From: Eledone cirrhosa | Lineage: Eukaryota | Assembly: GCA_964016885.1 (NCBI GenBank) | Contig: OZ024741.1 | Location: forward strand, 334,180,001 to 334,244,000 | Length of the DNA stretch: 64,000 nucleotides | Direction: 5' to 3' | Part shown: positions 1,561 through 33,156 of the stretch, piece after piece | Layout: each line of letters opens with the position of its first letter | Position numbering within the stretch: position 1 is the first letter of the stretch | Program-made: the position numbers and the translations under genes | Notes under the pieces: generated by a model | Database searches by the model: none | What the model saw: the letters and a program-made list of their open reading frames with translations, nothing else | What the model was told of the DNA's origin: nothing

Positions 1561-1605
<45 letters not shown>

Positions 1606-1684: not shown

Positions 1685-1737
<53 letters not shown>

Positions 1738-2088
1738 GACATATAGATACATACACACACAACTTACATACACACATATATATATATATAGATGTACATT
1801 CATACATAGAATTAGATATATAATCATACATACATATGCACCTACTTATACTCATATATATAAATACATACGCTTCCATATATGCGTATATACATAAAAA
1901 ACACTACAACCTCACCTAACCCAGACATACAAATAAAAATAATAATAAAAAGGCATATGTATATACATACACACACGCATTAATAGAGATATATATATAT
2001 ACACACATACATACACATATATATATATACATATATATATACACATATATATATGTATATTTATATATACACACACATACACTCATAC

Positions 2089-2120
<32 letters not shown>

Positions 2121-4104: not shown

Positions 4105-4161
<57 letters not shown>

Positions 4162-4240
4162 CGATGTGCGTATATGTATGTACATGTATGTACATGTATG
4201 TGTGTATGTATGTGTATGTATATTTAGATGTATGTGTATG

Positions 4241-4285
<45 letters not shown>

Positions 4286-5103
4286 ATATATATATATGGA
4301 TATATATCTTTATTATTTATTTTTTATATATATGTGTATGTGTGAATGTGTTGCGTGTGTGTGTGTGTGTATATATATATCTTTATATATGTGTATGTGT
4401 ATGTTCGTGTAAGTGTATATGTGTGTATGACTGTATATGTATGTGTGTATGTGTGTATGCGTAAATATTTCTATGTGCGCGTACATGTATGTATGTGTAT
4501 ATATCTGTATGCGTATGTATATTATATTATATTTATTATATTTTATTGTTTTATTTTTTTATTTTTCTTAATTTATAGATACATTTATATTAGGCAGTCT
4601 GCTCAGACAATTGAATACTGACCCCTTCCCCCCCTCCCACCTAATTTCTGTATCTTGATCTAGAAATGTGTGTGCCAGTGTTTTATGTGAGTGAATTAAT
4701 ATCCATGTGCTTATGATTTTATATCCACATATATAAATGTGAGTGGGGGTGTGTGTGTGTTTGTATGTTCGTGGTTATGTGTATATTTATGCATATACGC
4801 GCGTGTATGTGTGATTGTACTGATATGTGTGAGTATGAAAAAATATATTTATATACTTGACTCCATAAGTATCAATGCGCATCTTATCTGCGCATGGTAA
4901 GCTTACAGAGATATTAACCTTGAAATTTTGTGTTTGCATCCATCTTTTTAGTATGCGTATACAAATTATACATACATTTTTGTAAAATATGTGTAAGGGT
5001 TTTACATGTATATACACACACCGAACTGCCTTTAACCCTTTGTGTTTTCATTGGTCAATTTTGAACTGAAATTTTGAATTGTTGTTATTATCAATAAATA
5101 TAC

Positions 5104-5258
5104 TTCATTATTTCTGAAGACGGCGTATATATGTGTTTGGTATGTATATTTAATCTTGATAATTTGTATAATTTTGTATAATTTTGTACATAGATCTGTT
5201 GAATATGCATACCAATTATAACACATATATACCCTAGAAACGATCGTTAAATAATGAA
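5104..5258 (+). ncRNA. Type I hammerhead ribozyme with long stem II
   Basis: Stem I UUCAUUAUUU(5104-13)/AAAUAAUGAA(5249-58); core CUGAAGA 5114-20; GAAA 5237-40; palindromic stem III AACGAUCGUU; cleavage triplet GUU; stem II GUAUAUAUGUGU/ACACAUAUAUAC and UUGGUAUG/CAUACCAA. Confidence 0.78.
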
Positions 5259-5446
5259 CTTTTTTTGTTTAATATAAGGAATTGTTTATTCATTATTTGT
5301 TTAATATTTTATCTTGACTCTGTATACCGTTTATCTTTCACCGAAAGTGGTTTTTCATTACATCTCTTCTTTCCATGATATCCGGAATACATTGAGTTCT
5401 TCATACGGATTGGACACTACCGTAAACTCTTGGTAGATTTATCTAC

Positions 5447-5838
<392 letters not shown>

Positions 5839-6179
5839 GGAGGCACATGGCTTAGTGTTTAGAGCATTGGCCTTGCAATCGAAAGGTTGTGAGTTCAATT
5901 CTCAGACCGGGTGATGTGTTGTTTCCTTGAGCAAGACACTTTATTTCACATTGCTCCAGTTTACTCAGCTGTAGAAATGAGATGATAGGGACAGGGATCC
6001 ATATCATTCCACTGCAAAGTGGTCGTGGAGGTGCCACGGCAAAAAAAAGCACCCAGCACTCACTGTAAATGAGGTTGGTGTTAGGAAGGGCATCCAGCTG
6101 TAGAAATCAAGCCAGAATCAGTTCCCGTCCCACCCTTGCAAGCAGGGAAAAGCAGACGCAAAAAATGAAAAAAAAATGA

Positions 6180-6182
<3 letters not shown>
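5839..6182 (+). mobile_element. tRNA-derived SINE with CORE-like body and RTE-derived tail
   Basis: A-box-like TGGCTTAGTGTT, B-box-like GAGTTCAATTC, CCTTGAGCAAGACACTTTATTTCAC body. Tail CCCGTCCCACCCTTGCAAGCAGGGAAAAGC matches the 3' end of the RTE at 47800-47840. Confidence 0.85.
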
Positions 6183-8317: not shown

Positions 8318-8442
8318 TATATATATATATATATATATAGTATTAAGGATACTATTTATGGTTATGTATATACTAAAACTTTTTATAGTTATATATATTT
8401 TAAACCCTAAACAGTGTAAGACAGTAATTTATTTCGCACAAT

Positions 8443-9429
8443 ATGTCCATGAGAAAATTTAGTAATAAGAATAGCAACCACACACACACTAATACGAAGG
8501 ATGCCAACAAACGTAACCCATTCCACAGAAGTTACCATAGTACCATAAAAGGAAACAACTCACCAGACATAAAAAACAAAAATAGAAGAAGGAATAATAC
8601 ATTTTTCAACCCTCCTTTCAATCTAACCGTCTCTACCAACCTACCTAAGGCTTTCTTCTCACTCCTAGATAAAAACTTCCCATCTGGCCACAAGTACAAT
8701 AGCCTTTTAAACAAAAACACAATTAAAATCTCCTACTCTACTACGCCTAACATAGCATACGACATAGCTAGTAGCAATAAAAGAAAAATTAATTCTTACT
8801 TCCAACAAACTAAATCACAACAGGCGGTAAACCTTCAAAATAACATTATATCAACTAACCCTGATAACAATAGTAATAATAGTAATAGCACTAGTGTAAG
8901 CAATAACGCTGGGAACGACAACCCCCATAACCATAATCCTACAGCTACCACCCAGACTTCTACACAACATAATAACCGGCAGACTAACACCCGGAATAAT
9001 TGTAACTGTAGATCTAATAGAACCTGCCCTTTAGATAAAAAATGCTTAATCAAGGATATCATATACTCATGCACCGTCACAACTAGCTACTCTTCTGAAA
9101 CCTATATAGGCTCTACTTCAAACTGCTTCAAAACCAGATACAATTCGCACCTCCACTCTTTCCAAAAACACAGTCTAGTCAACTCCACTTCACTATCTAG
9201 CTACATACACTATCTAAAAACTAAAAATAGATCTTATACACTTAAATGGGAAGTGATAGGTAAGGTGACATCATACAAACCACCTAATAAAGTTTGTAAC
9301 CTCTGTCTACTAGAGACCTATACTATTATCTTCTCAAACCATAACCTCCTTAATAAAAAATCAGAAGTGTTCGCGTCATGCCAGCACCGCTTCCGACACT
9401 CTTTCCAAAACTTTAAACCCAATATATAG
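8443..9429 (+). pseudogene. C-terminal linker and GIY-YIG endonuclease of a PLE polyprotein (RT missing)
   Basis: FFNPPFN, NKNTIKISYS, CNCR..TCPL..KCL, IIYSC...YIGST, FKTRYNSH, CNLCLLE, LLNKKSE..SCQHR motifs. Confidence 0.88.
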
Positions 9430-10920: not shown

Positions 10921-10993
10921 AAATGGTTTGAACAGAACTTTGATTCATGTGATTTCTATATATATATATTTATATATATTTATATATATATAT

Positions 10994-11315
10994 ATCATCA
11001 TTTCATTTATTTCAATTTACGTCCGCTTTTCCCTGCTTGCAAGGGTGGGACGGGAACTGATTCTGGCTTGATTTCTACAGCTGGATGCCCTTCCTAACAC
11101 CAACCTCATTTACAGTGAGTGCTGGGTGCTTTTTTGCCGTGACACCTACACGACCACTTTGCAGTCACTATCATCTCATTTCTACAGCTGAGTAAACTGG
11201 AGCAATGTGAAATAAAGTGTCTTGCTCAAGGAAACAACACACCACCCGATCAGAGAATTGAACTCACAACCTTTCTATTGCAAGGCCAATGCTCTAACCA
11301 CTAAGCCATGTGCCT

Positions 11316-11317
<2 letters not shown>
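10994..11317 (-). mobile_element. tRNA-derived SINE, same family as 5839-6182
   Basis: Reverse complement starts GGAGGCACATGGCTTAGTGGTTAGAGCATTGGCC; same body and RTE tail. Confidence 0.85.
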
Positions 11318-11936
<619 letters not shown>

Positions 11937-11939
11937 GAT

Positions 11940-12102
11940 ATTAAATGATATTAAATAAATGGAAACTATATTTATAAAACCATATTTATTTCGTTATATA
12001 TATTTCAGGGATATCATATTAACAATATGTTATGCCTTCTTCAGACAAAATACAATATAAACAGTCTTATAAATAAATAGATACGACATACCTTTCAATC
12101 AC
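11940..12102 (-). mobile_element. PLE 3'-terminal fragment, homologous to 59050-59210
   Basis: Shares GAAATAAATATGGTTTTATAAATATAGTTTCCATTTATT and the HHR with the PLE end at 59100-59205. Confidence 0.75.
11987..12052 (-). ncRNA. Type I minimal hammerhead ribozyme
   Basis: Minus: UAUUUUGU-CUGAAGA-AGGCAUAACAUAUU..AAUAUGAUAUCCCU-GAAA-UAUAUAUA-ACGAAAUA. Confidence 0.72.
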
Positions 12103-12450
12103 CTCGACCAGAGGGAGTTATTAACAATATATATTTAGAAACACACAGATACATGCGGACACATTAGTGTTTCTAAATATATATTGTTAATAACTCCCTC
12201 TGGTCGAGCAATCTTTGAAGTGTGGGGACAGCTGGAAAGCTTCCATTACTCATACTTCTCGCCTTTTTCACCACCTCTTCTGCGGCCTCGATATAAATAC
12301 CCCCTCCGCCTCCGTGGTATTTTCTTCGGGGTCATAAGAGGCTTAGCTCTGTTTCTCGACCGTTATATCGCGTGACTATCTCCCCCTCCGCCTTTTGGGA
12401 TTCTTTCTCACGTCGTGTAGACGCGTTCTTGAGACTAGTAAAATGAGGTA

Positions 12451-12540
12451 TCCTCTTGATAAGTCGGCAGACCTCGCAGGGACTCTATGTCTTTATGATA
12501 TATTGTTTTTGTTTATGCCACGAAACTACGTAGTCGAGGA
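12451..12540 (+). ncRNA. Type I hammerhead, U3-A8 core variant (first of 21 copies)
   Basis: Stem I UCCUC(12451-55)/GAGGA(12536-40); core UUGAUAA 12456-62; stem II GU(C)GGCA/UGCCAC; GAAA 12522-25; palindromic ACUACGUAGU; GUC cleavage after 12535. Confidence 0.82.
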
Positions 12541-15500
12541 ATTTAGGAGCAGTTTAGGTATGATACATTTTATTACTAATTATATCTAAATGTTTCTTCT
12601 CTCTTCATAATGTATTTTTAACTCTGATACTGGTTCAGTCTAGTTCAACTGAATTGGTCTGTCCCAGTCATTCATTGAGCAACATCGGTGAAGTTGGCAC
12701 CCTTAACTCACAGTTGGGTGCGGATGCATTCATGTATATATGTGTGTGTCCGCATGTATCTGTGTGTTTCTAAATATATATTGATAATAACTCCCTCTGG
12801 TCGAGCAATCTTTGAAGTGTGGGGACAGCTGGAAAGCTTCCATTACTCATACTTCTCGCCTTCTTCACCACCTCTTCTGCGGCCTCGATATAAATACCCC
12901 CTCCGCCTCCGTTGTATTTTCTTCGGGGTTATAAGAGGCTTAGCTCTGTTTCTCGACCGTTATATCGCGTGACTATCTCCCCCTCCGCCTTTTGGGATTC
13001 TTTCTCACGTCGTGTAGACGCGTTCTTGAGACTAGTAAAATGAGGTATCCTCTTGATAAGTCGGCAGACCTCGCAGGGACTCTATGTCTTTATGATATAT
13101 TGTTTTTGTTTATGCCACGAAACTACGTAGTCGAGGAATTTAGGAGCAGTTTAGGTATGATACATTTTATTACTAATTATATCTAAATGTTTCTTCTCTC
13201 TTCATAATGTATTTTTAACTCTGATACTGGTTCAGTCTAGTTCAACTGAATTGGTCTGTCCCAGTCATTCATTGAGCAACATCGGTGAAGTTGGCACCCT
13301 TAACTCACAGTTGGGTGCGGATGCATTCATGTATATATGTGTGTGTCCGCATGTATCTGTGTGTTTCTAAATATATATTGTTAATAACTCCCTCTGGTCG
13401 AGCAATCTTTGAAGTGTGGGGACAGCTGGAAAGCTTCCATTACTCATACTTCTCGCCTTCTTCACCACCTCTTCTGCGGCCTCGATATAAATACCCCCTC
13501 CGCCTCCGTGGTATTTTCTTCGGGGTTATAAGAGGCTTAGCTCTGTTTCTCGACCGTTATATCGCGTGACTATCTCCCCCTCCGCCTTTTGGGATTCTTT
13601 CTCACGTCGTGTAGACGCGTTCTTGAGACTAGTAAAATGAGGTATCCTCTTGATAAGTCGGCAGACCTCGCAGGGACTCTATGTCTTTATGATATATTGT
13701 TTTTGTTTATGCCACGAAACTACGTAGTCGAGGAATTTAGGAGCAGTTTAGGTATGATACATTTTATTACTAATTATATCTAAATGTTTCTTCTCTCTTC
13801 ATAATGTATTTTTAACTCTGATACTGGTTCAGTCTAGTTCAACTGAATTGGTCTGTCCCAGTCATTCATTGAGCAACATCGGTGAAGTTGGCACCCTTAA
13901 CTCACAGTTGGGTGCGGATGCATTCATGTATATATGTGTGTGTCCGCATGTATCTGTGTGTTTCTAAATATATATTGTTAATAACTCCCTCTGGTCGAGC
14001 AATCTTTGAAGTGTGGGGACAGCTGGAAAGCTTCCATTACTCATACTTCTCGCCTTCTTCACCACCTCTTCTGCGGCCTCGATATAAATACCCCCTCCGC
14101 CTCCGTGGTATTTTCTTCGGGGTTATAAGAGGCTTAGCTCTGTTTCTCGACCGTTATATCGCGTGACTATCTCCCCCTCCGCCTTTTGGGATTCTTTCTC
14201 ACGTCGTGTAGACGCGTTCTTGAGACTAGTAAAATGAGGTATCCTCTTGATAAGTCGGCAGACCTCGCAGGGACTCTATGTCTTTATGATATATTGTTTT
14301 TGTTTATGCCACGAAACTACGTAGTCGAGGAATTTAGGAGCAGTTTAGGTATGATACATTTTATTACTAATTATATCTAAATGTTTCTTCTCTCTTCATA
14401 ATGTATTTTTAACTCTGATACTGGTTCAGTCTAGTTCAACTGAATTGGTCTGTCCCAGTCATTCATTGAGCAACATCGGTGAAGTTGGCACCCTTAACTC
14501 ACAGTTGGGTGCGGATGCATTCATGTATATATGTGTGTGTCCGCATGTATCTGTGTGTTTCTAAATATATATTGTTAATAACTCCCTCTGGTCGAGCAAT
14601 CTTTGAAGTGTGGGGACAGCTGGAAGGCTTCCATTACTCATACTTCTCGCCTTCTTCACCACCTCTTCTGCGGCCTCGATATAAATACCCCCTCCGCCTC
14701 CGTGGTATTTTCTTCGGGGTTATAAGTGGCTTAGCTCTGTTTCTCGACCGTTATATCGCGTGACTATCTCCCCCTCCGCCTTTTGGGATTCTTTCTCACG
14801 TCGTGTAGACGCGTTCTTGAGACTAGTAAAATGAGGTATCCTCTTGATAAGTCGGCAGACCTCGCAGGGACTCTATGTCTTTATGATATATTGTTTTTGT
14901 TTATGCCATGAAACTACGTAGTCGAGGAATTTAGGAGCAGTTTAGGTATGATACATTTTATTACTAATTATATCTAAATGTTTCTTCTCTCTTCATAATG
15001 TATTTTTAACTCTGATACTGGTTCAGTCTAGTTCAACTGAATTGGTCTGTCCCAGTCATTCATTGAGCAACATCGGTGAAGTTGGCACCCTTAACTCACA
15101 GTTGGGTGCGGATGCATTCATGTATATATGTGTGTGTCCGCATGTATCTGTGTGTTTCTAAATATATATTGATAATAACTCCCTCTGGTCGAGCAATCTT
15201 TGAAGTGTGGGGACAGCTGGAAAGCTTCCATTACTCATACTTCTCGCCTTCTTCACCACCTCTTCTGCGGCCTCGATATAAATACCCCCTCCGCCTCCGT
15301 TGTATTTTCTTCGGGGTTATAAGAGGCTTAGCTCTGTTTCTCGACCGTTATATCGCGTGACTATCTCCCCCTCCGCCTTTTGGGATTCTTTCTCACGTCG
15401 TGTAGACGCGTTCTTGAGACTAGTAAAATGAGGTATCTTCTTGATAAGTCGGCAGACCTCGCAGGGACTCTATGTCTTTATGATATATTGTTTTTGTTTA

Positions 15501-18500
15501 TCCCACGAAACTACGTAGTCGAGGAATTTAGGAGCAGTTTAGGTATGATACATTTCATTACTAATTATATCTAAATGTTTCTTCTCTCTTCATAATGTAT
15601 TTTTAACTCTGATACTGGTTCAGTCTAGTTCAACTGAATTGGTCTGTCCCAGTCATTCATTGAGCAACATCGGTGAAGTTGGCACCCTTAACTCACAGTT
15701 GGGTGCGGATGCATTCATGTATATATGTGTGTGTCCGCATGTATCTGTGTGTTTCTAAATATATATATTGTTAATAACTCCCTCTGGTCGAGCAATCTTT
15801 GAAGTGTGGGGACAGCTGGAAAGCTTCCATTACTCATACTTCTCGCCTTCTTCACCACCTCTTCTGCGGCCTCGATATAAATACCCCCTCCGCCTCCGTG
15901 GTATTTTCTTCGGGGTTATAAGAGGCTTAGCTCTGTTTCTCGACCGTTATATCGCGTGACTACTTCCCCTCCGCCTTTTGGGATTCTTTCTCACGTCGTG
16001 TAGACGCGTTCTTGAGACTAGTAAAATGAGGTATCCTCTTGATAAGTCGGCAGACCTCGCAGGGACTCTATGTCTTTATGATATATTGTTTTTGTTTATG
16101 CCACGAAACTACGTAGTCGAGGAATTTAGGAGCAGTTTAGGTATGATACATTTTATTACTAATTATATCTAAATGTTTCTTCTCTCTTCATAATGTATTT
16201 TTAACTCTGATACTGGTTCAGTCTAGTTCAACTGAATTGGTCTGTCCCAGTCATTCATTGAGCAACATCGGTGAAGTTGGCACCCTTAACTCACAGTTGG
16301 GTGCGGATGCATTCATGTATATATGTGTGTGTCCATATGTATCTGTGTGTTTCTAAATATATATTGTTAATAACTCCCTCTGGTCGAGCAATCTTTGAAG
16401 TGTGGGGACAGCTGGAAAGCTTCCATTACTCATACTTCTCGCCTTCTTCACCACCTCTTCTGCGGCCTCGATATAAATACCCCCTCCGCCTCCGTGGTAT
16501 TTTCTTCGGGGTTATAAGAGGCTTAGCTCTGTTTCTCGACCGTTATATCGCGTGACTATCTCCCCCTCCGCCTTTTGGGATTCTTTCTCACGTCGTGTAG
16601 ACGCGTTCTTGAGACTAGTAAAATGAGGTATCCTCTTGATAAGTCGGCAGACCTCGCAGGGACTCTATGTCTTTATGATATATTGTTTTTGTTTATGCCA
16701 CGAAACTACGTAGTCAAGGAATTTAGGAGCAGTTTAGGTATGATACATTTTATTACTAATTATATCTAAATGTTTCTTCTCTCTTCATAATGTATTTTTA
16801 ACTCTGATACTGGTTCAGTCTAGTTCAACTGAATTGGTCTGTCCCAGTCATTCATTGAGCAACATCGGTGAAGTTGGCACCCTTAACTCACAGTTGGGTG
16901 CGGATGCATTCATGTATATATGTGTGTGTCCGCATGTATCTGTGTGTTTCTAAATATATATTGTTAATAACTCCCTCTGGTCGAGCAATCTTTGAAGTGT
17001 GGGGACAGCTGGAAAGCTTCCATTACTCATACTTCTCGCCTTCTTCACCACCTCTTCTGCGGCCTCGATATAAATACCCCCTCCGCCTCCGTGGTATTTT
17101 CTTCGGGGTTATAAGAGGCTTAGCTCTGTTTCTCGACCGTTATATCGCGTGACTATCTCCCCCTCCGCCTTTTGGGATTCTTTCTCACGTCGTGTAGACG
17201 CGTTCTTGAGACTAGTAAAATGAGGTATCCTCTTGATAAGTCGGCAGACCTCGCAGGGACTCTATGTCTTTATGATATATTGTTTTTGTTTATGCCACGA
17301 AACTACGTAGTCGAGGAATTTAGGAGCAGTTTAGGTATGATACATTTTATTACTAATTATATCTAAATGTTTCTTCTCTCTTCATAATGTATTTTTAACT
17401 CTGATACTGGTTCAGTCTAGTTCAACTGAATTGGTCTGTCCCAGTCATTCATTGAGCAACATCGGTGAAGTTGGCACCCTTAACTCACAGTTGGGTGCGG
17501 ATGCATTCATGTATATATGTGTGTGTCCGCATGTATCTGTGTGTTTCTAAATATATATTGTTAATAACTCCCTCTGGTCGAGCAATCTTTGAAGTGTGGG
17601 GACAGCTGGAAAGCTTCCATTACTCATACTTCTCGCCTTCTTCACCACCTCTTCTGCGGCCTCGATATAAATACCCCCTCCGCCTCCGTGGTATTTTCTT
17701 CGGGGTTATAAGTGGCTTAGCTCTGTTTCTCGACCGTTATATCGCGTGACTATCTCCCCCTCCGCCTTTTGGGATTCTTTCTCACGTCGTGTAGACGCGT
17801 TCTTGAGACTAGTAAAATGAGGTATCCTCTTGATAAGTCGGCAGACCTCGCAGGGACTCTATGTCTTTATGATATATTGTTTTTGTTTATGCCACGAAAC
17901 TACGTAGTCGAGGAATTTAGGAGCAGTTTAGGTATGATACATTTTATTACTAATTATATCTAAATGTTTCTTCTCTCTTCATAATGTATTTTTAACTCTG
18001 ATACTGGTTCAGTCTAGTTCAACTGAATTGGTCTGTCCCAGTCATTCATTGAGCAACATCGGTGAAGTTGGCACCCTTAACTCACAGTTGGGTGCGGATG
18101 CATTCATGTATATATGTGTGTGTCCGCATGTATCTGTGTGTTTCTAAATATATATTGATAATAACTCCCTCTGGTCGAGCAATCTTTGAAGTGTGGGGAC
18201 AGCTGGAAAGCTTCCATTACTCATACTTCTCGCCTTCTTCACCACCTCTTCTGCGGCCTCGATATAAATACCCCCTCCGCCTCCGTTGTATTTTCTTCGG
18301 GGTTATAAGAGGCTTAGCTCTGTTTCTCGACCGTTATATCGCGTGACTATCTCCCCCTCCGCCTTTTGGGATTCTTTCTCACGTCGTGTAGACGCGTTCT
18401 TGAGACTAGTAAAATGAGGTATCCTCTTGATAAGTCGGCAGACCTCGCAGGGACTCTATGTCTTTATGATATATTGTTTTTGTTTATCCCACGAAACTAC

Positions 18501-21500
18501 GTAGTCGAGGAATTTAGGAGCAGTTTAGGTATGATACATTTCATTACTAATTATATCTAAATGTTTCTTCTCTCTTCATAATGTATTTTTAACTCTGATA
18601 CTGGTTCAGTCTAGTTCAACTGAATTGGTCTGTCCCAGTCATTCATTGAGCAACATCGGTGAAGTTGGCACCCTTAACTCACAGTTGGGTGCGGATGCAT
18701 TCATGTATATATGTGTGTGTCCGCATGTATCTGTGTGTTTCTAAATATATATATTGTTAATAACTCCCTCTGGTCGAGCAATCTTTGAAGTGTGGGGACA
18801 GCTGGAAAGCTTCCATTACTCATACTTCTCGCCTTCTTCACCACCTCTTCTGCGGCCTCGATATAAATACCCCCTCCGCCTCCGTGGTATTTTCTTCGGG
18901 GTTATAAGAGGCTTAGCTCTGTTTCTCGACCGTTATATCGCGTGACTACTTCCCCTCCGCCTTTTGGGATTCTTTCTCACGTCGTGTAGACGCGTTCTTG
19001 AGACTAGTAAAATGAGGTATCCTCTTGATAAGTCGGCAGACCTCGCAGGGACTCTATGTCTTTATGATATATTGTTTTTGTTTATGCCACGAAACTACGT
19101 AGTCGAGGAATTTAGGAGCAGTTTAGGTATGATACATTTTATTACTAATTATATCTAAATGTTTCTTCTCTCTTCATAATGTATTTTTAACTCTGATACT
19201 GGTTCAGTCTAGTTCAACTGAATTGGTCTGTCCCAGTCATTCATTGAGCAACATCGGTGAAGTTGGCACCCTTAACTCACAGTTGGGTGCGGATGCATTC
19301 ATGTATATATGTGTGTGTCCATATGTATCTGTGTGTTTCTAAATATATATTGTTAATAACTCCCTCTGGTCGAGCAATCTTTGAAGTGTGGGGACAGCTG
19401 GAAAGCTTCCATTACTCATACTTCTCGCCTTCTTCACCACCTCTTCTGCGGCCTCGATATAAATACCCCCTCCGCCTCCGTGGTATTTTCTTCGGGGTTA
19501 TAAGAGGCTTAGCTCTGTTTCTCGACCGTTATATCGCGTGACTATCTCCCCCTCCGCCTTTTGGGATTCTTTCTCACGTCGTGTAGACGCGTTCTTGAGA
19601 CTAGTAAAATGAGGTATCCTCTTGATAAGTCGGCAGACCTCGCAGGGACTCTATGTCTTTATGATATATTGTTTTTGTTTATGCCACGAAACTACGTAGT
19701 CAAGGAATTTAGGAGCAGTTTAGGTATGATACATTTTATTACTAATTATATCTAAATGTTTCTTCTCTCTTCATAATGTATTTTTAACTCTGATACTGGT
19801 TCAGTCTAGTTCAACTGAATTGGTCTGTCCCAGTCATTCATTGAGCAACATCGGTGAAGTTGGCACCCTTAACTCACAGTTGGGTGCGGATGCATTCATG
19901 TATATATGTGTGTGTCCGCATGTATCTGTGTGTTTCTAAATATATATTGTTAATAACTCCCTCTGGTCGAGCAATCTTTGAAGTGTGGGGACAGCTGGAA
20001 AGCTTCCATTACTCATACTTCTCGCCTTCTTCACCACCTCTTCTGCGGCCTCGATATAAATACCCCCTCCGCCTCCGTGGTATTTTCTTCGGGGTTATAA
20101 GAGGCTTAGCTCTGTTTCTCGACCGTTATATCGCGTGACTATCTCCCCCTCCGCCTTTTGGGATTCTTTCTCACGTCGTGTAGACGCGTTCTTGAGACTA
20201 GTAAAATGAGGTATCCTCTTGATAAGTCGGCAGACCTCGCAGGGACTCTATGTCTTTATGATATATTGTTTTTGTTTATGCCACGAAACTACGTAGTCGA
20301 GGAATTTAGGAGCAGTTTAGGTATGATACATTTTATTACTAATTATATCTAAATGTTTCTTCTCTCTTCATAATGTATTTTTAACTCTGATACTGGTTCA
20401 GTCTAGTTCAACTGAATTGGTCTGTCCCAGTCATTCATTGAGCAACATCGGTGAAGTTGGCACCCTTAACTCACAGTTGGGTGCGGATGCATTCATGTAT
20501 ATATGTGTGTGTCCGCATGTATCTGTGTGTTTCTAAATATATATTGTTAATAACTCCCTCTGGTCGAGCAATCTTTGAAGTGTGGGGACAGCTGGAAAGC
20601 TTCCATTACTCATACTTCTCGCCTTCTTCACCACCTCTTCTGCGGCCTCGATATAAATACCCCCTCCGCCTCCGTGGTATTTTCTTCGGTGTTATAAGTG
20701 GCTTAGCTCTGTTTCTCGACCGTTATATCGCGTGACTATCTCCCCCTCCGCCTTTTGGGATTCTTTCTCACGTCGTGTAGACGCGTTCTTGAGACTAGTA
20801 AAATGAGGTATCCTCTTGATAAGTCGGCAGACCTCGCAGGGACTCTATGTCTTTATGATATATTGTTTTTGTTTATGCCACGAAACTACGTAGTCGAGGA
20901 ATTTAGGAGCAGTTTAGGTATGATACATTTTATTACTAATTATATCTAAATGTTTCTTCTCTCTTCATAATGTATTTTTAACTCTGATACTGGTTCAGTC
21001 TAGTTCAACTGAATTGGTCTGTCCCAGTCATTCATTGAGCAACATCGGTGAAGTTGGCACCCTTAACTCACAGTTGGGTGCGGATGCATTCATGTATATA
21101 TGTGTGTGTCCGCATGTATCTGTGTGTTTCTAAATATATATTGATAATAACTCCCTCTGGTCGAGCAATCTTTGAAGTGTGGGGACAGCTGGAAAGCTTC
21201 CATTACTCATACTTCTCGCCTTCTTCACCACCTCTTCTGCGGCCTCGATATAAATACCCCCTCCGCCTCCGTTGTATTTTCTTCGGGGTTATAAGAGGCT
21301 TAGCTCTGTTTCTCGACCGTTATATCGCGTGACTATCTCCCCCTCCGCCTTTTGGGATTCTTTCTCACGTCGTGTAGACGCGTTCTTGAGACTAGTAAAA
21401 TGAGGTATCCTCTTGATAAGTCGGCAGACCTCGCAGGGACTCTATGTCTTTATGATATATTGTTTTTGTTTATGCCACGAAACTACGTAGTCGAGGAATT

Positions 21501-24391
21501 TAGGAGCAGTTTAGGTATGATACATTTTATTACTAATTATATCTAAATGTTTCTTCTCTCTTCATAATGTATTTTTAACTCTGATACTGGTTCAGTCTAG
21601 TTCAACTGAATTGGTCTGTCCCAGTCATTCATTGAGCAACATCGGTGAAGTTGGCACCCTTAACTCACAGTTGGGTGCGGATGCATTCATGTATATATGT
21701 GTGTGTCCATATGTATCTGTGTGTTTCTAAATATATATTGTTAATAACTCCCTCTGGTCGAGCAATCTTTGAAGTGTGGGGACAGCTGGAAAGCTTCCAT
21801 TACTCATACTTCTCGCCTTCTTCACCACCTCTTCTGCGGCCTCGATATAAATACCCCCTCCGCCTCCGTGGTATTTTCTTCGGGGTTATAAGAGGCTTAG
21901 CTCTGTTTCTCGACCGTTATATCGCGTGACTATCTCCCCCTCCGCCTTTTGGGATTCTTTCTCACGTCGTGTAGACGCGTTCTTGAGACTAGTAAAATGA
22001 GGTATCCTCTTGATAAGTCGGCAGACCTCGCAGGGACTCTATGTCTTTATGATATATTGTTTTTGTTTATGCCACGAAACTACGTAGTCAAGGAATTTAG
22101 GAGCAGTTTAGGTATGATACATTTTATTACTAATTATATCTAAATGTTTCTTCTCTCTTCATAATGTATTTTTAACTCTGATACTGGTTCAGTCTAGTTC
22201 AACTGAATTGGTCTGTCCCAGTCATTCATTGAGCAACATCGGTGAAGTTGGCACCCTTAACTCACAGTTGGGTGCGGATGCATTCATGTATATATGTGTG
22301 TGTCCGCATGTATCTGTGTGTTTCTAAATATATATTGTTAATAACTCCCTCTGGTCGAGCAATCTTTGAAGTGTGGGGACAGCTGGAAAGCTTCCATTAC
22401 TCATACTTCTCGCCTTCTTCACCACCTCTTCTGCGGCCTCGATATAAATACCCCCTCCGCCTCCGTGGTATTTTCTTCGGGGTTATAAGAGGCTTAGCTC
22501 TGTTTCTCGACCGTTATATCGCGTGACTATCTCCCCCTCCGCCTTTTGGGATTCTTTCTCACGTCGTGTAGACGCGTTCTTGAGACTAGTAAAATGAGGT
22601 ATCCTCTTGATAAGTCGGCAGACCTCGCAGGGACTCTATGTCTTTATGATATATTGTTTTTGTTTATGCCACGAAACTACGTAGTCGAGGAATTTAGGAG
22701 CAGTTTAGGTATGATACATTTTATTACTAATTATATCTAAATGTTTCTTCTCTCTTCATAATGTATTTTTAACTCTGATACTGGTTCAGTCTAGTTCAAC
22801 TGAATTGGTCTGTCCCAGTCATTCATTGAGCAACATCGGTGAAGTTGGCACCCTTAACTCACAGTTGGGTGCGGATGCATTCATGTATATATGTGTGTGT
22901 CCGCATGTATCTGTGTGTTTCTAAATATATATTGTTAATAACTCCCTCTGGTCGAGCAATCTTTGAAGTGTGGGGACAGCTGGAAAGCTTCCATTACTCA
23001 TACTTCTCGCCTTCTTCACCACCTCTTCTGCGGCCTCGATATAAATACCCCCTCCGCCTCCGTGGTATTTTCTTCGGGGTTATAAGAGGCTTAGCTCTGT
23101 TTCTCGACCGTTATATCGCGTGACTATCTCCCCCTCCGCCTTTTGGGATTCTTTCTCACGTCGTGTAGACGCGTTCTTGAGACTAGTAAAATGAGGTATC
23201 CTCTTGATAAGTCGGCAGACCTCGCAGGGACTCTATGTCTTTATGATATATTGTTTTTGTTTATGCCACGAAACTACGTAGTCGAGGAATTTAGGAGCAG
23301 TTTAGGTATGATACATTTTATTACTAATTATATCTAAATGTTTCTTCTCTCTTCATAATGTATTTTTAACTCTGATACTGGTTCAGTCTAGTTCAACTGA
23401 ATTGGTCTGTCCCAGTCATTCATTGAGCAACATCGGTGAAGTTGGCACCCTTAACTCACAGTTGGGTGCGGATGCATTCATGTATATATGTGTGTCCCCG
23501 CATGTATCTGTGTGTTTCTAAATATATATTGTTAATAACTCCCTCTGGTCGAGCAATCTTTGAAGTGTGGGGACAGCTGGAAAGCTTCCATTACTCATAC
23601 TTCTCGCCTTCTTCACCACCTCTTCTGCGGCCTCGATATAAATACCCCCTCCGCCTCCGTGGTATTTTCTTCGGGGTTATAAGAGGCTTAGCTCTGTTTC
23701 TCGACCGTTATATCGCGTGACTATCTCCCCCTCCGCCTTTGGGATTCTTTCTCACGTCGTGTAGACGCGTTCTTGAGACTAGTAAAATGAGGTATCCTCT
23801 TGATAAGTCGGCAGACCTCGCAGGGACTCTATGTCTTTATGATATATTGTTTTTGTTTATGCCACGAAACTACGTAGTCGAGGAATTTAGGAGCAGTTTA
23901 GGTATGATACATTTTATTACTAATTATATCTAAATGTTTCTTCTCTCTTCATAATGTATTTTTAACTCTGATACTGGTTCAGTCTAGTTCAACTGAATTG
24001 GTCTGTCCCAGTCATTCATTGAGCAACATCGGTGAAGTTGGCACCCTTAACTCACAGTTGGGTGCGGATGCATTCATGTATATATGTGTGTGTCCGCATG
24101 TATCTGTGTGTTTCTAAATATATATTGTTAATAACTCCCTCTGGTCGAGCAATCTTTGAAGTGTGGGGACAGCTGGAAAGCTTCCATTACTCATACTTCT
24201 CGCCTTCTTCACCACCTCTTCTGCGGCCTCGATATAAATACCCCCTCCGCCTCCGTGGTATTTTCTTCGGGGTTATAAGAGGCTTAGCTCTGTTTCTCGA
24301 CCGTTATATCGCGTGACTATCTCCCCCTCCGCCTTTTGGGATTCTTTCTCACGTCGTGTAGACGCGTTCTTGAGACTAGTAAAATGAGGTA

Positions 24392-24481
24392 TCCTCTTGA
24401 TAAGTCGGCAGACCTCGCAGGGACTCTATGTCTTTATGATATATTGTTTTTGTTTATACCACGAAACTACGTAGTCGAGGA
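24392..24481 (+). ncRNA. Type I hammerhead, U3-A8 variant (last of 21 copies)
   Basis: Same motif; predicted cleavage after 24476; one stem II substitution (UACCAC). Confidence 0.75.
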
Positions 24482-24552
24482 ATTTAGGAGCAGTTTAGGT
24501 ATGATACATTTTATTACTAATTATATTTAAATGTTTCTTCTCTCTTCATAAT

Positions 24553-25639
<1,087 letters not shown>

Positions 25640-27183
25640 GAGGGTGTTAAAGTTTGCTTGAAGCATCGTGAAATGTGTAAAATACGTAGTTTAGAAAGCC
25701 ACAATAATTTAGAGGGAAATCTCGAGGTAGGAAGTGAATGATAGATAGGAGAAATAGGAGAAAGTGAAAATTGAGAGAGACAAAGATGAAAACAAAACAA
25801 AGGTAGAAGGGTTACCGTAGTGGAGATTTAATCCCAATATTTCGGGCTCACGCCCATCAACGGGGGAAAGTTCCAAAAAGGGGGGGGGGGGACAGGCTAA
25901 GCCGGAGAAGGTTGTGGTGTCGTTAAAACAGGAATGCCGTTATGGGGAGAAAATTTCTTAAAATTTAAATGTGGCAATGAATGCGCGTGCGCGTGATAGG
26001 CTGTGGCAAAAGCTACTGACCAAATGGGTTAAATCAAGAGGGTGCGCTAGCGTGTGAGAGCCGTAAAATATGTGTGTATAAATATAGATGTGTGTGTGTA
26101 TGCGTATGGGTATATATGTGTGAGTGCGTGTGTGTGTGAAAGATAGTGGGCTGTAGAAGCTGGAAATCAAAGGGTGTGAAAGGTGGTAGGTTGTAAAAAC
26201 ATGTGTGCGTGTATAAATATAGATGTGTGTGTGTATGCGTATGGGTATGCATATACGTGCGTGTGTGTGAAAATAGCAGGCCGTAAGGGCTGTGAATGGT
26301 CACTATGGTTAAGTTAGCCATGTCAGCTCATTTCTCTCAGCCCGGTTGTTAAGTGGGGGTCTGAGGTTCTTAATAACAAGTGCTTCCTTTATCCTTAAGG
26401 ATCCGATGCTGCGTTCAGTCGCTAGGACTGTGACCAATGGTCTACCCTGTGGGCTTCCGCATTTAAGGATGTGTTTACGGAAGGAAGATGCGTTGGTGTT
26501 GATATGTTCCTTGATACGAACATGTAGGGGTCGGATGGTGCTACCTATGTAAAACTTGTTACATTTATCGCATTGATTCTTATATACGACATAGGTGCGT
26601 AGGCAATCTGCCCCCCGTATCGGGCAGTTGCTGAGGGAACACGTCCCATCTGACTCGTCGGGTTTGTTGGAGAGGCATCTTCGCAGCGAAGGTCCTGTGT
26701 GGGCCAAATGTATGTCAAGTCCCTCCGTCCGTATGGCCCTGCGGATGGCGTTCGTGGTATATTCACTCAGGTGGGGGATTTTAAAGAAGCACCTGCTTTT
26801 ATTTAAGTTTCTAGTGGGTGTCTGTCTATTGGGTCTGGGGTCTCTAATTCCGTTAATCAGTCGCTTGGGATATCCATTAGACTTGAGTAGATTACGGAAT
26901 TGCGTGGTATGGGTGAGACCACTCATCGGGTCGCTGCATCTGTTAGTGATCCGTGTCAGTTCATTTAGGACATAGCCTCTCTTAGCGTTGTTGGGGAGGG
27001 CTGAGTTGTAATGCACAAATAAGTCCTTGCACGCTGCTTTGCGGTAGAAGGTGGTGTTTATGTCTCCTTCTTCCGAGATGTTGATACGGAAGTCGAGGAG
27101 GGCGAGTGACCCGTCTTCTCCTGGGTGTTCGATGGTGAAATCGACGTGATGGTCAGTACCATTGAAGATTTGGTGAATTTCAT
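25640..27183 (-). mobile_element. 5'-truncated Penelope-like element (Penelope/Poseidon-like) with RT C-terminus, GIY-YIG and 3' UTR
   Basis: Minus frame VDFTIEHPGEDGSLALLDFRI...TTFYRK...HYNSALP...LKSNGYP...YVVYKNQCDKCNKFYIGSTIRPLHVRIKEH...IKEALVIK...LN; degenerate HHR-like GGGC-GUGA-GCCC-GAAAUAUUGGGA at 25832-25867; both ends in (TA)n. Confidence 0.88.
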
Positions 27184-27222
27184 TTATATATATTTATATA
27201 TATATATATATATATATATTTG

Positions 27223-27290
<68 letters not shown>

Positions 27291-27598
27291 AATTATATAT
27301 ATATTTATATATATATATATATATATATATTTAAATTATATATATATTTATATATATATATATATATATATTTAAATTATATATATATTTATATATATAT
27401 ATATATATTAAATTATATATATATTTATATATATATATGTATATATATATATGTATATATATATGTATATATGTAGGAGGTGAGTTTTATTGTAGTACAA
27501 TAAAGCAATGCAGATATCGGATAAGAAGCACTCTACAGTTTGTGGGACTGGAGTATGCATAATATAAGATCAAAAGATGGTTAAAGGCGTTCCATATA

Positions 27599-27664
27599 TT
27601 TTATTATGCGCATTTCAAAAACAAACATCATCAAGCAATAATATTTGTGTTTTCATCAGATAAA
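27599..27664 (-). ncRNA. Type I minimal hammerhead ribozyme
   Basis: Mirror of 32580-32646. Confidence 0.82.
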
Positions 27665-28671
27665 TCAGGAGAACATGATATGAAGGCTAAAAAACACTTG
27701 TGGATAGTGCAGTTTTAAATCAACATATGAAAAGTGGTTTTAGATTGATGTGTGATATTGGGAAAAATATTTTATTTAGAGAGGGGGGGGGGAAGGATGA
27801 AAAGGGAAGGAGATGAGAGGGAGAGATGGGCGACAGAGAGAAAGAGATAGTTTCTATAACCGAGAGGAGATATATTTTTTACATAGAGGGGTTGAAAACC
27901 GTTGGAAGATACTGTATAAATTAAAAATTTTGAAAATTAACGAAGGGAGGATATGTGCGAGGAAAAAACATTTCATTTAGGGAGGGGTGGGGGGGGGGGG
28001 GTGAAAAAAAGGGGGAGGAGACGAGAGTGAAGGTGGAGAGGGAGAGATGGGTGATAGAGAGAAAGAGATAGTTTTTATAACTGAGAAAAAGATATATTGT
28101 TTTAATATAGAGAGGTTGGGAACCGTTGGAAGATAATGTATAAATTAAAGGAATTTGAAAATCAACGAAGGGAAATTATGTATGAAGATAGAGAGAAAAA
28201 AATAATAATTGTGGGTGAATATTCTAACGTCAAAAGAAGAAATGTATGTATTGTGGCAATTTCAAAATTAGCGAAGAGAAAAATTGTTACGGTTTGTGTG
28301 TAGAAGGATTTGAGAAAAATAATGTGAAGTTAAAGTTTGTATATTGAATTGATAATATGTGCGAATAAAGAGTTAATATGTATTAATAATGAGTTCGTTG
28401 ATGGGGAGAAAAAAATAATAATAAATTAAGGATGAAATTGAGATTAAAAAGATTTATGATAGAGAGAAAAAATAATAATGATTGCGGATGAATATTCAAA
28501 ATGTCAAAAACAAATGTTATTATTTTACGAGAAGATAGAATGAGGGTAATGAGTAAACGAGTATTATAGAGTGTATAATGCCCTTTAAAGTAAGGTAGAT
28601 GGGTATATTTTAAAGAGGTGTATGTATATGTGCCTTTGAGAAAAGATTCTAAATTGATAAAGAATTGAATA

Positions 28672-30557
28672 TTAACTGTATACTTTGTGAAAAGTTCTAT
28701 GGAATTTATGCAGGCAGATAGAAAACAAATCTGAGCGTCTATTTATTATAGAATCTAGGTTAGAGATAATGGTAAATTTTTCATTTAGGCAGAGATTACA
28801 GATTTTAGATAGAGAGCTGTTCAAGTATGAGGATGCAGAAGAAATCTTCTTCCAAAAGATGGTATATTTAATGTTTTTGTCTTTTAAGGACCATATGAGT
28901 TCTGAGAGAGCAGTGTTAGTTCTTTTAAGTTTGTATTTGAAAGATGAATGATGATTATAGAGACGAGCTTTAAAAGAGGTGGAAGTGGAGCCAAAATAGG
29001 TGAAGGAATTGGTGTTAGTTATAATTTTACATTCATAAATTAAGTTTTTATCGAGGCAATGGTTGTTGAGAGGACATTTATTTTTAATGCGGCAGTTGCA
29101 ATTAGAGAGATTATTAATGAGTGATCTAGTGTTATCTATAGAAGGAATTGGATTGGAGAAGTTGTTTGCGATAGGAATAATAGGAATAATAGTTTCTTGA
29201 TTTAGAGTTGGATTATGAACATTTAGCGAAGTTGTGTTTGACGTTGTATTTGGGTTTACAGAAGTTAGCCTAGGGTTTACAATGACGTCGGGAGTACTAT
29301 TACTGTTATTATGAAATTCAATATTGGAAGGAAGAGATTTAGTATTTAATATTTTGTTGTTGTGTTTAGAGATGATGTTGGAAATATTGGAGGATGTAGA
29401 ATACGAAAATTTGATGGTGTGTTTGTTAAATATTTTACTATAGATATGTGAGGGAGGGAAGCATTTATTTAAGGCACTAAAAAATAATTTAGGAATATTG
29501 TTATTAATAGAGATGGAGAAAGGAGCATTATACCAGATTATGTTTTTGTATCTAGGTCTTTTATTAAAATTATTGGAATGGTCATGATTAATTATTCTAC
29601 TGTAAGTTTTCCTAGAATTTGTTTCTTTATTATATTTGATTTTATCTGGATAGCCGGCTTTAGAAAGTGCGTTATTATAGTAATTGGCGTTAGCATCAAA
29701 GATGTTTTTATTAGAAGATATGTTAGATATGCTATTTCCAATATTATTAACTATAGCATTCTTGATATTGGTAGGATGGTTAGATTTAAAGTTAACATAA
29801 TTAAGGTTCTCATTGTTTTTATGGTAAGGGTAATATAGGCCAGTGTCAAGATTAAGAGATACATCCAAGAAATTAGCTAGTTTGATACTATTATCAAATT
29901 CAATTTTTAGGTTATGTTGGTTAAAGAGATTACGTATATTGTTCTTAATAATATTAAGTTTAACTATATTGCAATTTAGGATAGTAAAGAGTCCATCGTC
30001 ACGATAAATTCCACCGCGAAGTTGAGGAATTTTCCGACTCAAAGAGTTCAAAATGAAGATACCAATTAAATCAGTCAATTGGGATGAATCGGATGCTCCC
30101 ATTGTGATGTCGAAGTTGTTAGAGGTATCGGCTCTGGTCCAATATTCGTTGTTGAACTCTAGGATGGTTTTACGTGCGGTGAGGATGATGTGAAGTTCAT
30201 CTGTGGTGATGTCAGAATATTTAAGTGCGAAAGATAGAGCATTATTGAGAAGTGAATGCGAAATGGAGGAATAGTAGCTGGCAATATCAAATTGAATAAA
30301 TTTTAGTTTGTTTTTATTATCCAATTTGTTGAACCAGCCAATCACTTCAGAAGTACCAAACCATAAATTTAGGTTTAAAGAAGAGCAATTAGAACTAACC
30401 TGTGGGATAATCCTATCCAAGATGGCTTTACTAACAACCCCCAGATCAGATTTAGAGGGGGCGATTAATCTAACAGGTAGTTCAGTGCGAAAATTGTTTT
30501 TGTGATCCTTGAGATTTATCCTCGGAGTTCTTGGGAGGAATGGTTCGGTCTTTTTTT
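28672..30557 (-). CDS. PLE reverse transcriptase-GIY-YIG polyprotein, N-terminally truncated but uninterrupted
   Basis: LKDHK..VRLIAPSKS, FIQFDIASYYSSI, ITMGASDSSQLTDLIG, GIYRDDGL, NFLDVSLNL, SNHP, CNCR..CPL..CL, LIYEC..YFGST, CNLCLNEK. Residues upstream of 30557 in the ORF track come from the inverted copy. Confidence 0.88.
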
Positions 30558-30558
30558 C

Positions 30559-32686
30559 AACGCCAATTACTATAATAACGCACTTTCTAAAGCCGGCTAT
30601 CCAGATAAAATCAAATATAATAAAGAAACAAATTCTAGGAAAACTTACAGTAGAATAATTAATCATGACCATTCCAATAATTTTAATAAAAGACCTAGAT
30701 ACAAAAACATAATCTGGTATAATGCTCCTTTCTCCATCTCTATTAATAACAATATTCCTAAATTATTTTTTAGTGCCTTAAATAAATGCTTCCCTCCCTC
30801 ACATATCTATAGTAAAATATTTAACAAACACACCATCAAATTTTCGTATTCTACATCCTCCAATATTTCCAACATCATCTCTAAACACAACAACAAAATA
30901 TTAAATACTAAATCTCTTCCTTCCAATATTGAATTTCATAATAACAGTAATAGTACTCCCGACGTCATTGTAAACCCTAGGCTAACTTCTGTAAACCCAA
31001 ATACAACGTCAAACACAACTTCGCTAAATGTTCATAATCCAACTCTAAATCAAGAAACTATTATTCCTATTATTCCTATCGCAAACAACTTCTCCAATCC
31101 AATTCCTTCTATAGATAACACTAGATCACTCATTAATAATCTCTCTAATTGCAACTGCCGCATTAAAAATAAATGTCCTCTCAACAACCATTGCCTCGAT
31201 AAAAACTTAATTTATGAATGTAAAATTATAACTAACACCAATTCCTTCACCTATTTTGGCTCCACTTCCACCTCTTTTAAAGCTCGTCTCTATAATCATC
31301 ATTCATCTTTCAAATACAAACTTAAAAGAACTAACACTGCTCTCTCAGAACTCATATGGTCCTTAAAAGACAAAAACATTAAATATACCATCTTTTGGAA
31401 GAAGATTTCTTCTGCATCCTCATACTTGAACAGCTCTCTATCTAAAATCTGTAATCTCTGCCTAAATGAAAAATTTACCATTATCTCTAACCTAGATTCT
31501 ATAATAAATAGACGCTCAGATTTGTTTTCTATCTGCCTGCATAAATTCCATAGAACTTTTCACAAAGTATACAGTTAATTTTCAATTCTTTATCAATTTA
31601 GAATCTTTTCTCAAAGGCACATATACATACACCTCTTTAAAATATACCCATCTACCTTACTTTAAAGGGCATTATACACTCTATAATACTCGTTTACTCA
31701 TTACCCTCATTCTATCTTCTCGTAAAATAATAACATTTGTTTTTGACATTTTGAATATTCATCCGCAATCATTATTATTTTTTCTCTCTATCATAAATCT
31801 TTTTAATCTCAATTTCATCCTTAATTTATTATTATTTTTTTCTCCCCATCAACGAACTCATTATTAATACATATTAACTCTTTATTCGCACATATTATCA
31901 ATTCAATATACAAACTTTAACTTCACATTATTTTTCTCAAATCCTTCTACACACAAACCGTAACAATTTTTCTCTTCGCTAATTTTGAAATTGCCACAAT
32001 ACATACATTTCTTCTTTTGACGTTAGAATATTCACCCACAATTATTATTTTTTTCTCTCTATCTTCATACATGATTTCCCTTCGTTGATTTTCAAATTCC
32101 TTTAATTTATACATTATCTTCCAACGGTTCCCAACCTCTCTATATTAAAACAATATATCTTTTTCTCAGTTATAAAAACTATCTCTTTCTCTCTATCACC
32201 CATCTCTCCCTCTCCACCTTCACTCTCGTCTCCTCCCCCTTTCTTTCATCCTCCCCCCCTCCCTAAATGAAATGTTTTTTCCTCGCACATATCCTCCCTT
32301 CGTTAATTTTCAAAATTTTTAATTTATACAGTATCTTCCAACGGTTTTCAACCCCTCTATGTAAAAAATATATCTCCTCTCGGTTATAGAAACTATCTCT
32401 TTCTCTCTGTCGCCCATCTCTCCCTCTCATCTCCTTCCCTTTTCATCCTTCCCCCCCCCCCCTCTCTAAATAAAATATTTTTCCCAATATCACACATCAA
32501 TCTAAAACCACTTTTCATATGTTGATTTAAAACTGCACTATCCACAAGTGTTTTTTAGCCTTCATATCATGTTCTCCTGTTTTATCTGATGAAAACACAA
32601 ATATTATTGCTTGATGATGTTTGTTTTTGAAATGCGCATAATAAAATATATGGAACTCCTTTAACCATCTTTTGATCTTATATTAT
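30559..32686 (+). mobile_element. Inverted duplicate of the 3' 2.1 kb of the adjacent PLE (GIY-YIG region + 3' UTR)
   Basis: ORF 30502..31578 is identical to the C-terminal part of 28672..30672 from NANYYNN onward; mirror sum 60250. Confidence 0.93.
32580..32646 (+). ncRNA. Type I minimal hammerhead ribozyme
   Basis: UUUUAU-CUGAUGA(32586-92)-AAACACAAAUAUUAUU/GAUGAUGUUUGUUUUU-GAAA-UGCGCA-UA-AUAAAA; palindrome AUGCGCAU. Confidence 0.85.
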
Positions 32687-32689
32687 ATG

Positions 32690-32722
<33 letters not shown>

Positions 32723-32789
32723 GTATATATATGTATATATATATATATATGTATATGTATATATATATATATGTATATATATATGTATA

Positions 32790-32858
<69 letters not shown>

Positions 32859-32945
32859 GTAGATATATATGTATATATGTATATATATGTATGTATATAT
32901 ATATATATGTATATATGTATATATATGTATATATGTATATATATG

Positions 32946-32980
<35 letters not shown>

Positions 32981-33156
32981 GTATATTATAAATTATATAT
33001 ATATATTTATATTATAAATTATATATATATATATATATTTATATTATAAATTATATATATATATATAATATTTAAATTATATATATATATATATATATAT
33101 TTAAATTATATATATATATATATATATATTTAAATTATATATATATATATATATTT

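Follow-up and report, generated by a model that had tools for sequence, protein, structure and literature searches.

We describe an array of 21 tandem units, each bearing one predicted hammerhead ribozyme, in a 64,000-nt stretch of the Eledone cirrhosa genome (assembly GCA_964016885.1, contig OZ024741.1, positions 334,180,001 to 334,244,000 of the forward strand; hereafter the window). The units form a non-long-terminal-repeat (non-LTR) retrozyme whose insertion footprints point to mobilization by Penelope-like elements (PLEs) of the Hydra clade. Positions within the unit are numbered from the predicted cleavage site, q1 being the first base 3' of the cut. The array and its immediate flanks, between window positions 11318 and 25639, comprise the following features:

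11318-11941 (no strand): left (TA)n target microsatellite
11938-12104 (-): 3' end of Hydra-A, a pseudo-LTR fragment of a young Hydra-clade PLE, with short tail
12103-12163 (-): inverted retrozyme arm, about q210-270, terminating at the GAG of candidate start signal 2
12167-12535 (+): 5'-truncated first unit, q229-597, up to the first predicted cut
12451-12540 (+): first predicted type I hammerhead, cut after 12535; one per unit, the last at 24392-24481
12536-24476 (+): the 20 complete units, each 596-598 nt from cut to cut, with a 5-unit higher-order period
12622-12679 (+): candidate start signal 1 (unit 1 shown; present in each full unit), q87-144, 11 nt past the short end
12791-12805 (+): candidate start signal 2 (unit 1 shown), q256-270, 5-12 nt past the long end at q244-251
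24477-24552 (+): short tail, q1-76; first of the family's two fixed 3' ends and putative reverse-transcription start 1
24551-25639 (no strand): right (TA)n target microsatellite

A motif scan of the array found 21 GAAA-stem III-cut motifs on the plus strand and none on the minus strand, with predicted cuts after 12535, 13132, 13729 and so on to 24476, spaced 596-598 nt apart. The 20 full units, 12 of them distinct, each depart from the majority sequence at 0-5 positions; their GC content is 42%, and the longest stop-free frame in the array encodes 70 amino acids. The first base of the array is 12167 (q229); at its other end it passes into (TA)n at q76-80. An initial annotation made from the letters alone had described near-identical, non-coding 597-nt units arranged head to tail, 21 plus-strand hammerheads with these same cut positions, and a stop 76 nt past the last cut directly in (TA)n, all of which our analysis reproduced; it had overlooked two features on the left, namely the inverted arm (12103-12163) and, fused with this arm, the 3' end of a Hydra-clade PLE (11938-12104). 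An LTR layout does not apply, as the units are circularly permuted and have no unique interior (primer-binding site and polypurine tract were not searched for). Tandem Repeats Finder, whose period limit is 500, is blind to the array, and a bacterial promoter scan of the window gave chance-level matches that are irrelevant here.

Exact patterns counted across the 3.0-Gb assembly, with reversed-pattern controls at 0, yielded 6,726 ribozyme cores. Short ends, with q76-80 adjoining (TA)n, number 2,533; long ends, with q244-246 leading into A/T runs, number 1,794, a count that leaves aside q251 ends. We sampled the first 100 short-end sites listed, all on contig C1; removal of two duplicated loci left 98 sites, or ~4% of the short ends. 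An inverted second arm is present at 61 of them, and 59 of these 61 arms terminate at q244-254; one more site, L210, has an inverted arm reaching the long end that was overlooked by chaining. At 90/98 sites the far edge is embedded in (TA)n-like DNA, and the 5' ends are scattered; insertions sit in (TA)n, where a target-site duplication cannot be read. Short arms span at least one cut site at 90 of the 98 sites, at least two at 37 and at least four at 3. Most sites hold 1-3 units, and other arrays reach about 9. Searches with four PLE proteins from the genome found no shared coding DNA upstream of the 98 sites; PLE coding DNA lies within 21 nt of the element at two of them, and it comes from different families. 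By its sequence, the array is one locus of a dispersed young family, a non-LTR retrozyme. This identity, which the initial annotation had put forward as a candidate, accords with the tandem type I hammerhead units, the absence of coding capacity, the dispersal, the high copy number and the stable fold described below. Fixed 3' ends, 5' truncation and an inverted arm, with the tail on one end, are the pattern of PLE-mobilized elements.

Two side observations concern the family. At L177:1354-1644 (G000:C7:16361811-16362101) lies an old retrozyme relative, 74% identical, with the same core and a short end in (TA)n, which indicates that the retrozyme family has long been present in the genome. At L210 (G000:C1:50595495-50601495), the inversion point contains about six repeats of an 11-nt stretch of the unit, which looks like reverse transcriptase (RT) slippage during arm joining.

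The genome harbors PLEs that could supply the enzyme. Of 51 matches to the Hydra-A fragment next to the array, 47 show 100% identity over 158 nt; the fragment bears its own minimal hammerhead with a predicted cut between 11995 and 11994. Full Hydra-A copies have a 3.7-kb period, and open frames of 738-761 amino acids occur in more than 50 of the 150 copies listed (counted by eye). A second family, Hydra-C, encodes a 714-amino-acid protein, with frames of 713-715 amino acids in 19 of the 150 copies listed; one intact Hydra-C ORF lies at G000:C1:330103153-330105294. Both carry marks of the Hydra clade (RWK, DKT, the CxCx5C linker, CxxC and CxH, Hydra-A having RWR), a C-terminal endonuclease and a (TA)n target, and the protein marks agree with those given by Craig et al. 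(2021; PMC8557442), making them putative members of that clade; Pfam gave no classification for these proteins. Inverted Hydra-A copies have one short and one long tail in 15/15 cases (counted by eye). In the parts of the literature covered, inverted arms of which one end carries a tail are described for PLEs (Craig et al., 2021; PMC8557442), and in vitro the two internal sites at which the RT starts were found to flank the PLE tail (Frangieh et al., 2024; PMC11167929). The difference in length between the two tails is about 170 nt in the retrozyme and 75-90 nt in Hydra-A and Hydra-C.

A likeness between retrozyme and PLEs appears just past these ends. A CUC/GAG stem with a 2-nt bulge follows the 3' ends of Hydra-A, of Hydra-C and of a third family, Hydra-B; the stem past the Hydra-C long end is a variant form, judged by eye. 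The retrozyme unit holds exactly two such stems, on the plus strand only, 11-12 nt past q76 and q244; the first consists of CUC, a 50-nt hairpin insert, a 2-nt bulge and GAG. A later check gave independent support: GCTCTG...CATAGAGCA is what older retrozyme copies have at signal 1, and identical words occur in Hydra-C-type tails; across 1.0 Mb of sampled DNA, this combination is confined to Hydra-C-type tails and older retrozyme copies. The mobilization by PLEs proposed in the initial annotation thus gains from fixed ends in (TA)n, from the 59 of 61 inverted copies with one end per arm, and from a stem signal shared with Hydra elements. We also looked for a parent PLE carrying a shorter version of the retrozyme ribozyme and rejected it, as the four matches were all retrozyme copies or the old relative.

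Hydra-B is itself represented in the window by an inverted insertion at 27182-33051, with arms 95.6% alike, a 696-amino-acid frame at 28672-30762 and hammerheads predicted to cut at 27605 (-) and 32640 (+); it has one long and one short tail, with a CUC/GAG stem past the short end. Besides its terminal hammerhead, Hydra-C has a degenerate one whose cut position is G, about 1.4 kb farther upstream in a microsatellite-rich 3' untranslated region, and both copies have it (L288:3400-3480 and L266, G000:C1:330102300-330106200).

Retrozyme and PLE ends are also found fused. In the window, the inverted arm (about q210-270) is joined to Hydra-A through a 2-nt AG microhomology, with no (TA)n between them. 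At L266, a 17-nt inverted retrozyme piece is joined to about 3 kb of Hydra-C that matches an intact copy at 99.4% over 2,038 nt and ends in a long tail, opposite the short tail of the retrozyme. The L266 insertion follows the short-plus-long rule and, judging from its junctions, looks like one insertion made from two RNAs. The partner of the copy at L095 is an unclassified family with a hammerhead; at L179:1710-1935 and L095:1863-2090 we noted a dispersed family that has a small U3-A8 hammerhead and terminates in (TA)n.

The ribozyme is of type I, with a UUGAUAA core in which U3-A8 replaces C3-G8, a 5-bp stem I and a 57-nt stem II region; the same core variant is known from Schistosoma PLEs, as reported in the text available of Cervera and de la Pena (2014; PMC4209133). 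Our own hammerhead descriptor matched the plus strand only and 0 of 1000 shuffled units. Rfam gave no matches on the array at the gathering score, and its 24 weak matches include no hammerhead family. Stem III is palindromic, and its duplex (-14.3 kcal/mol) is compatible with cleavage as a dimer. The unit folds more stably than its shuffles (z = -6.96), and the circular fold reaches -182.8 kcal/mol for the unit versus -132.7 kcal/mol for its reverse complement. Four hairpins had been named in the initial annotation: GCGGAT/GTCCGC holds, whereas the other three, GCACCC/GGGTGC and TTCAGT/ACTGAA among them, have a pairing probability of about 0 in the circular ensemble.

Variation across 149 sites, a minority of which were found by queries that included the ribozyme or the full unit and so introduce a slight bias on conservation, supports selection on a structured plus-strand RNA. 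Variants common to at least two sites break 14 confident pairs of the plus-strand fold, versus 27.8 ± 3.6 under random placement, and 11 once changes in the partner are counted. Singleton variants break 58 pairs versus 67.1 ± 5.9 expected (p 0.07). For the minus-strand fold there is no sparing, with 18 pairs broken by shared variants and 12.6 expected. Columns with shared variants number 0/31 in the ribozyme core with stems I and III and 101/483 elsewhere (Fisher p 0.0017); the ribozyme is spared in inherited lineages, which favors a role for cleavage. Adenosine-to-inosine editing fixed through retrotransposition was considered as a source of variants and found no support (6 template-level A>G versus 3 T>C, p 0.17).

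Units differ on average at 2.4 positions within a site, with a median of 10.4 between sites. Private variants are shared by all full units at 9 of 25 multi-unit sites, and 23 site-private variants are present in every copy at their site. This pattern fits repeated copying of one monomer followed by mutation, with some templates presumably mixed. Ligation scars were sought at the cut site and not found: 134 of 154 junction contexts match the reference, and the changes are mostly of CpG type or at inversion points. An RT stop there, as a linear cleaved template would give, was rejected, the excess at q1-3 (7 versus 1 expected) being mostly an alignment edge effect; three arm ends lie exactly at q1 after inspection, and one phase of (TA)n is joined to q1 once genome-wide. 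With neither scar nor stop, the template would be a clean circle or an uncleaved RNA. The unit also appears as one closed 620/621-nt contig in two public runs of unstated kind, an outcome that tandem DNA gives equally.

The 21-unit length seems to have another origin. Distances between units of the array are lowest at a lag of 5 (2.27 versus about 4), with irregular blocks of 4 or 5 units, and variants found in 2-4 units of the array occur at 0 of about 140 other sites. The 5-unit period and the spread of variants solely inside the array point to later local block duplication, or to assembly error. These comparisons indicate that the length arose by local amplification after insertion, a multimeric template being a possible alternative. 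The initial annotation had the array begin by rolling-circle reverse transcription; as a simple product of that process, a 21-mer does not accord with this periodicity. The array as master copy of the family was likewise rejected, its private variants being absent from those other sites.

Taken together, we consider it likely that the array stems from a single insertion, of a young non-autonomous retroelement that was copied by a Hydra-type RT, probably from a circle. Tandem copies would be transcribed from the plus strand. The hammerhead, whose conservation suggests that it acts, would then cut, probably as a dimer through the palindromic stem III, and release monomers of about 590-598 nt that would be ligated into circles in which the ribozyme is blocked. 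In the next step, for which the genomic evidence is strong, an RT/GIY-YIG protein of a Hydra-clade PLE, most likely of the Hydra-C group, would recognize the two CUC/GAG stems and nick (TA)n; cDNA synthesis would begin at two internal points, q76-80 and q244-251, frequently on both strands, to give inverted short-plus-long arms. The RT would pass the cut site once or several times, leaving 1-5 units per arm, and the sequence pattern suggests that this locus was then expanded to 21 units by local block duplication. More tentatively, and with rather less confidence than we place in the account just given, Hydra-clade RTs may choose their templates by a bulged CUC/GAG stem ~10 nt 3' of each of two start sites, with one site used per target strand; the RT may roll round a ribozyme-made circle that keeps only that signal, and mixed insertions may record both RNAs in one event.

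Several observations weigh against this account. In the local fragment, the active ribozyme fold lies 5.4 kcal/mol above the minimum, and in a 600-nt context stems I and III have a probability of 0.0; among Xenopus retrozyme dimers, 8/9 were uncleaved in vitro (Li, Clavereau and Pollet, 2026; 10.64898/2026.07.22.740005, in the part considered here). The signal pattern was defined with both elements in view, so that its shuffle value of 0/3000 is optimistic; shared variants fall in 0/14 start-signal columns, which is not significant alone (p 0.08), and the retrozyme shows no wider homology to Hydra-A, -B or -C except simple repeats. The nearest unit elsewhere differs at 2.9 positions on average, as against 2.4 within a site; some arrays are mixed, with up to 9 differences, and 193 private variants are present in just one copy of their site. 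The window fusion links two short ends, contrary to the short-plus-long rule, and either fusion could be a deletion between neighbors, because the elements cluster in (TA)n; the fusions are thus supporting, not decisive. Finally, L240 adjoins a non-Hydra PLE frame, in sense.

The same element and enzyme could have used a different template, namely uncleaved read-through of tandem copies, with circles absent or a by-product. We regard this as unlikely but by no means negligible, given that uncleaved RNA is the dominant substrate of the anole PLE in vitro (Frangieh et al., 2024; PMC11167929, in the part available), which speaks against the circle; the unfavored active fold, the clean cut site and the mixed arrays agree with it too. 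Yet the ribozyme core is protected from inherited change, the long array is not a visible master, and most sites hold just 1-3 units; multi-unit arms with private variants on both arms (L210, L099) come about more easily from a circle, and related retrozymes are abundant as circles (Cervera and de la Pena, 2020; PMC7229834, same restriction). There is also a small chance that the family is real but the assembly wrong in its 21-unit length or in the left fusion: the array is the longest encountered, its 4- and 5-unit blocks are irregular, and none of the contigs listed bridges the fusion at 12102-12104. Against such an error stand the ordered, distinct variants among its units and the arrays of 62-300 units reported in other animals, and contigs are unable to show absence.

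That the mobilizer was a (TA)n-targeting PLE of another clade, of the Neptune, Naiad or Poseidon type, and the likeness to Hydra a matter of chance or common ancestry, seems quite improbable to us. Neptune and Naiad likewise target (TA)n, L240 is one site among 98 that adjoins a non-Hydra frame, L095 is joined to an unclassified family, and our survey of PLE families was partial; the start signal is nevertheless word for word that of Hydra-C at the matching position, and two fusions involve young Hydra ends. Least probable of all, and largely refuted, is an origin of the unit as pseudo-LTR of a coding PLE, multiplied in the manner of an ordinary DNA satellite. The local block duplication in this array would fit it, and 24 of 57 Xenopus retrozyme families are homologous to pseudo-LTRs in the portion of Li 2026 (10.64898/2026.07.22.740005) considered. 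Past the long end, however, the unit returns to its own ribozyme with no frame above 70 amino acids, whereas Hydra-A and Hydra-C start their open reading frame (ORF) there; the 98 sites lack shared upstream coding DNA, and fixed-end dispersal with strand-specific selection requires an RNA stage. The initial annotation had offered a terminal repeat of a coding PLE as its refuting case, and none was found at the 98 sampled sites.

Elsewhere in the window, we noted a Hydra-type PLE 3' fragment at 8428-9429 (+) and a GIY-YIG PLE 3' fragment of another clade at 26309-27193 (-), whose tail ends in (TA)n near 25645. A long interspersed nuclear element (LINE) at 47801-50883 (-) uses two frames, of 444 and 595 amino acids, for its endonuclease and RT, its best database relative being 57% identical, and fragments of a related family lie at 55422-56695 and 61913-63188. 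A short element is present twice, at 5838-6180 and 10957-11317, in inverted copies (89%) that both lie between (TA)n tracts; with a tRNA-like head recognized by eye, it is probably a short interspersed nuclear element. A mirror-image region at 530-5460, with a (CA/TA)-rich interior and inverted ends (658-695 versus 5151-5188), is probably another inverted PLE-type insertion. A 36-bp minisatellite with 61 copies (94% matches) and several open frames occupies 43787-45996.

The enzyme that spreads animal retrozymes, and the circle as its template, have so far been proposals from co-occurrence and homology. What is new here is evidence on mobilization, namely insertion footprints, a start signal and fusions; array size and copy number are within published ranges. 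Intact Hydra-clade ORFs and a non-coding RNA whose two start points are mapped form a matched, young pair in this genome, to which a candidate signal of about 14 bases is added; together they open trans-mobilization and rolling-circle reverse transcription to test in an in vitro format that already exists. A reason for the one short and one long end of PLE insertions is suggested as well.

The comparison with known systems draws on parts of the cited papers; the supplements of Cervera 2020, Li 2026 and Craig 2021, outside it, may list the family or its partners. A literature search, mostly outside subscription papers and without Repbase and Dfam, found no report of this family, of two-start retrozyme footprints or of a Hydra start signal, and a review names PLEs only as likely retrozyme partners in the text covered (PMC7761336). 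The array most resembles the metazoan non-LTR retrozymes of coral, mussel and axolotl (Cervera and de la Pena, 2020; PMC7229834), which are likewise tandem and non-coding, with a type I hammerhead in every unit, GC below 50%, thousands of copies, a stable fold and PLEs in the same genome. Those units measure 170-400 nt, as against about 590-598 nt here, and the array differs from them in its U3-A8 core and long stem II; its ribozyme is predicted to be blocked, unlike most animal examples. No target duplication is discernible in (TA)n; circles were demonstrated for those retrozymes, whereas the array is known from genome sequence, and two fixed ends with inverted arms, found here, are not described for them in the sections compared. 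The vertebrate non-LTR retrozymes (Li 2026; 10.64898/2026.07.22.740005) extend from 51 to 972 bp and up to 300 units; the array falls within both ranges, and an exceptional size of its 597-nt unit, first annotated as larger than typical, is not supported. That study derives retrozymes from PLE terminal repeats and proposes mobilization by PLEs from co-occurrence and Xenopus pseudo-LTR homology, whereas the array offers footprints, a shared start signal and fusions without extended pseudo-LTR homology; in the text considered, its Hydra clade was found in a coral only.

Among PLEs, the Hydra clade (Craig et al., 2021; PMC8557442) shares with the array the (TA)n target, the hammerhead near the 3' end and inverted arms tailed on one end; unlike these PLEs, the array encodes no protein, and its tail difference of about 170 nt, like the 75-90 nt of Hydra-A and Hydra-C, exceeds the 30-40 bp described for PLEs in the sections covered. 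The Anolis Poseidon element (Frangieh et al., 2024; PMC11167929) is reminiscent of the array in that two internal RT starts set the tail and an AT-rich target is cut on both strands. Its RT starts lie at an AC-rich stem-loop inside the ORF, whereas those of the retrozyme would lie before a CUC/GAG stem in a non-coding RNA.

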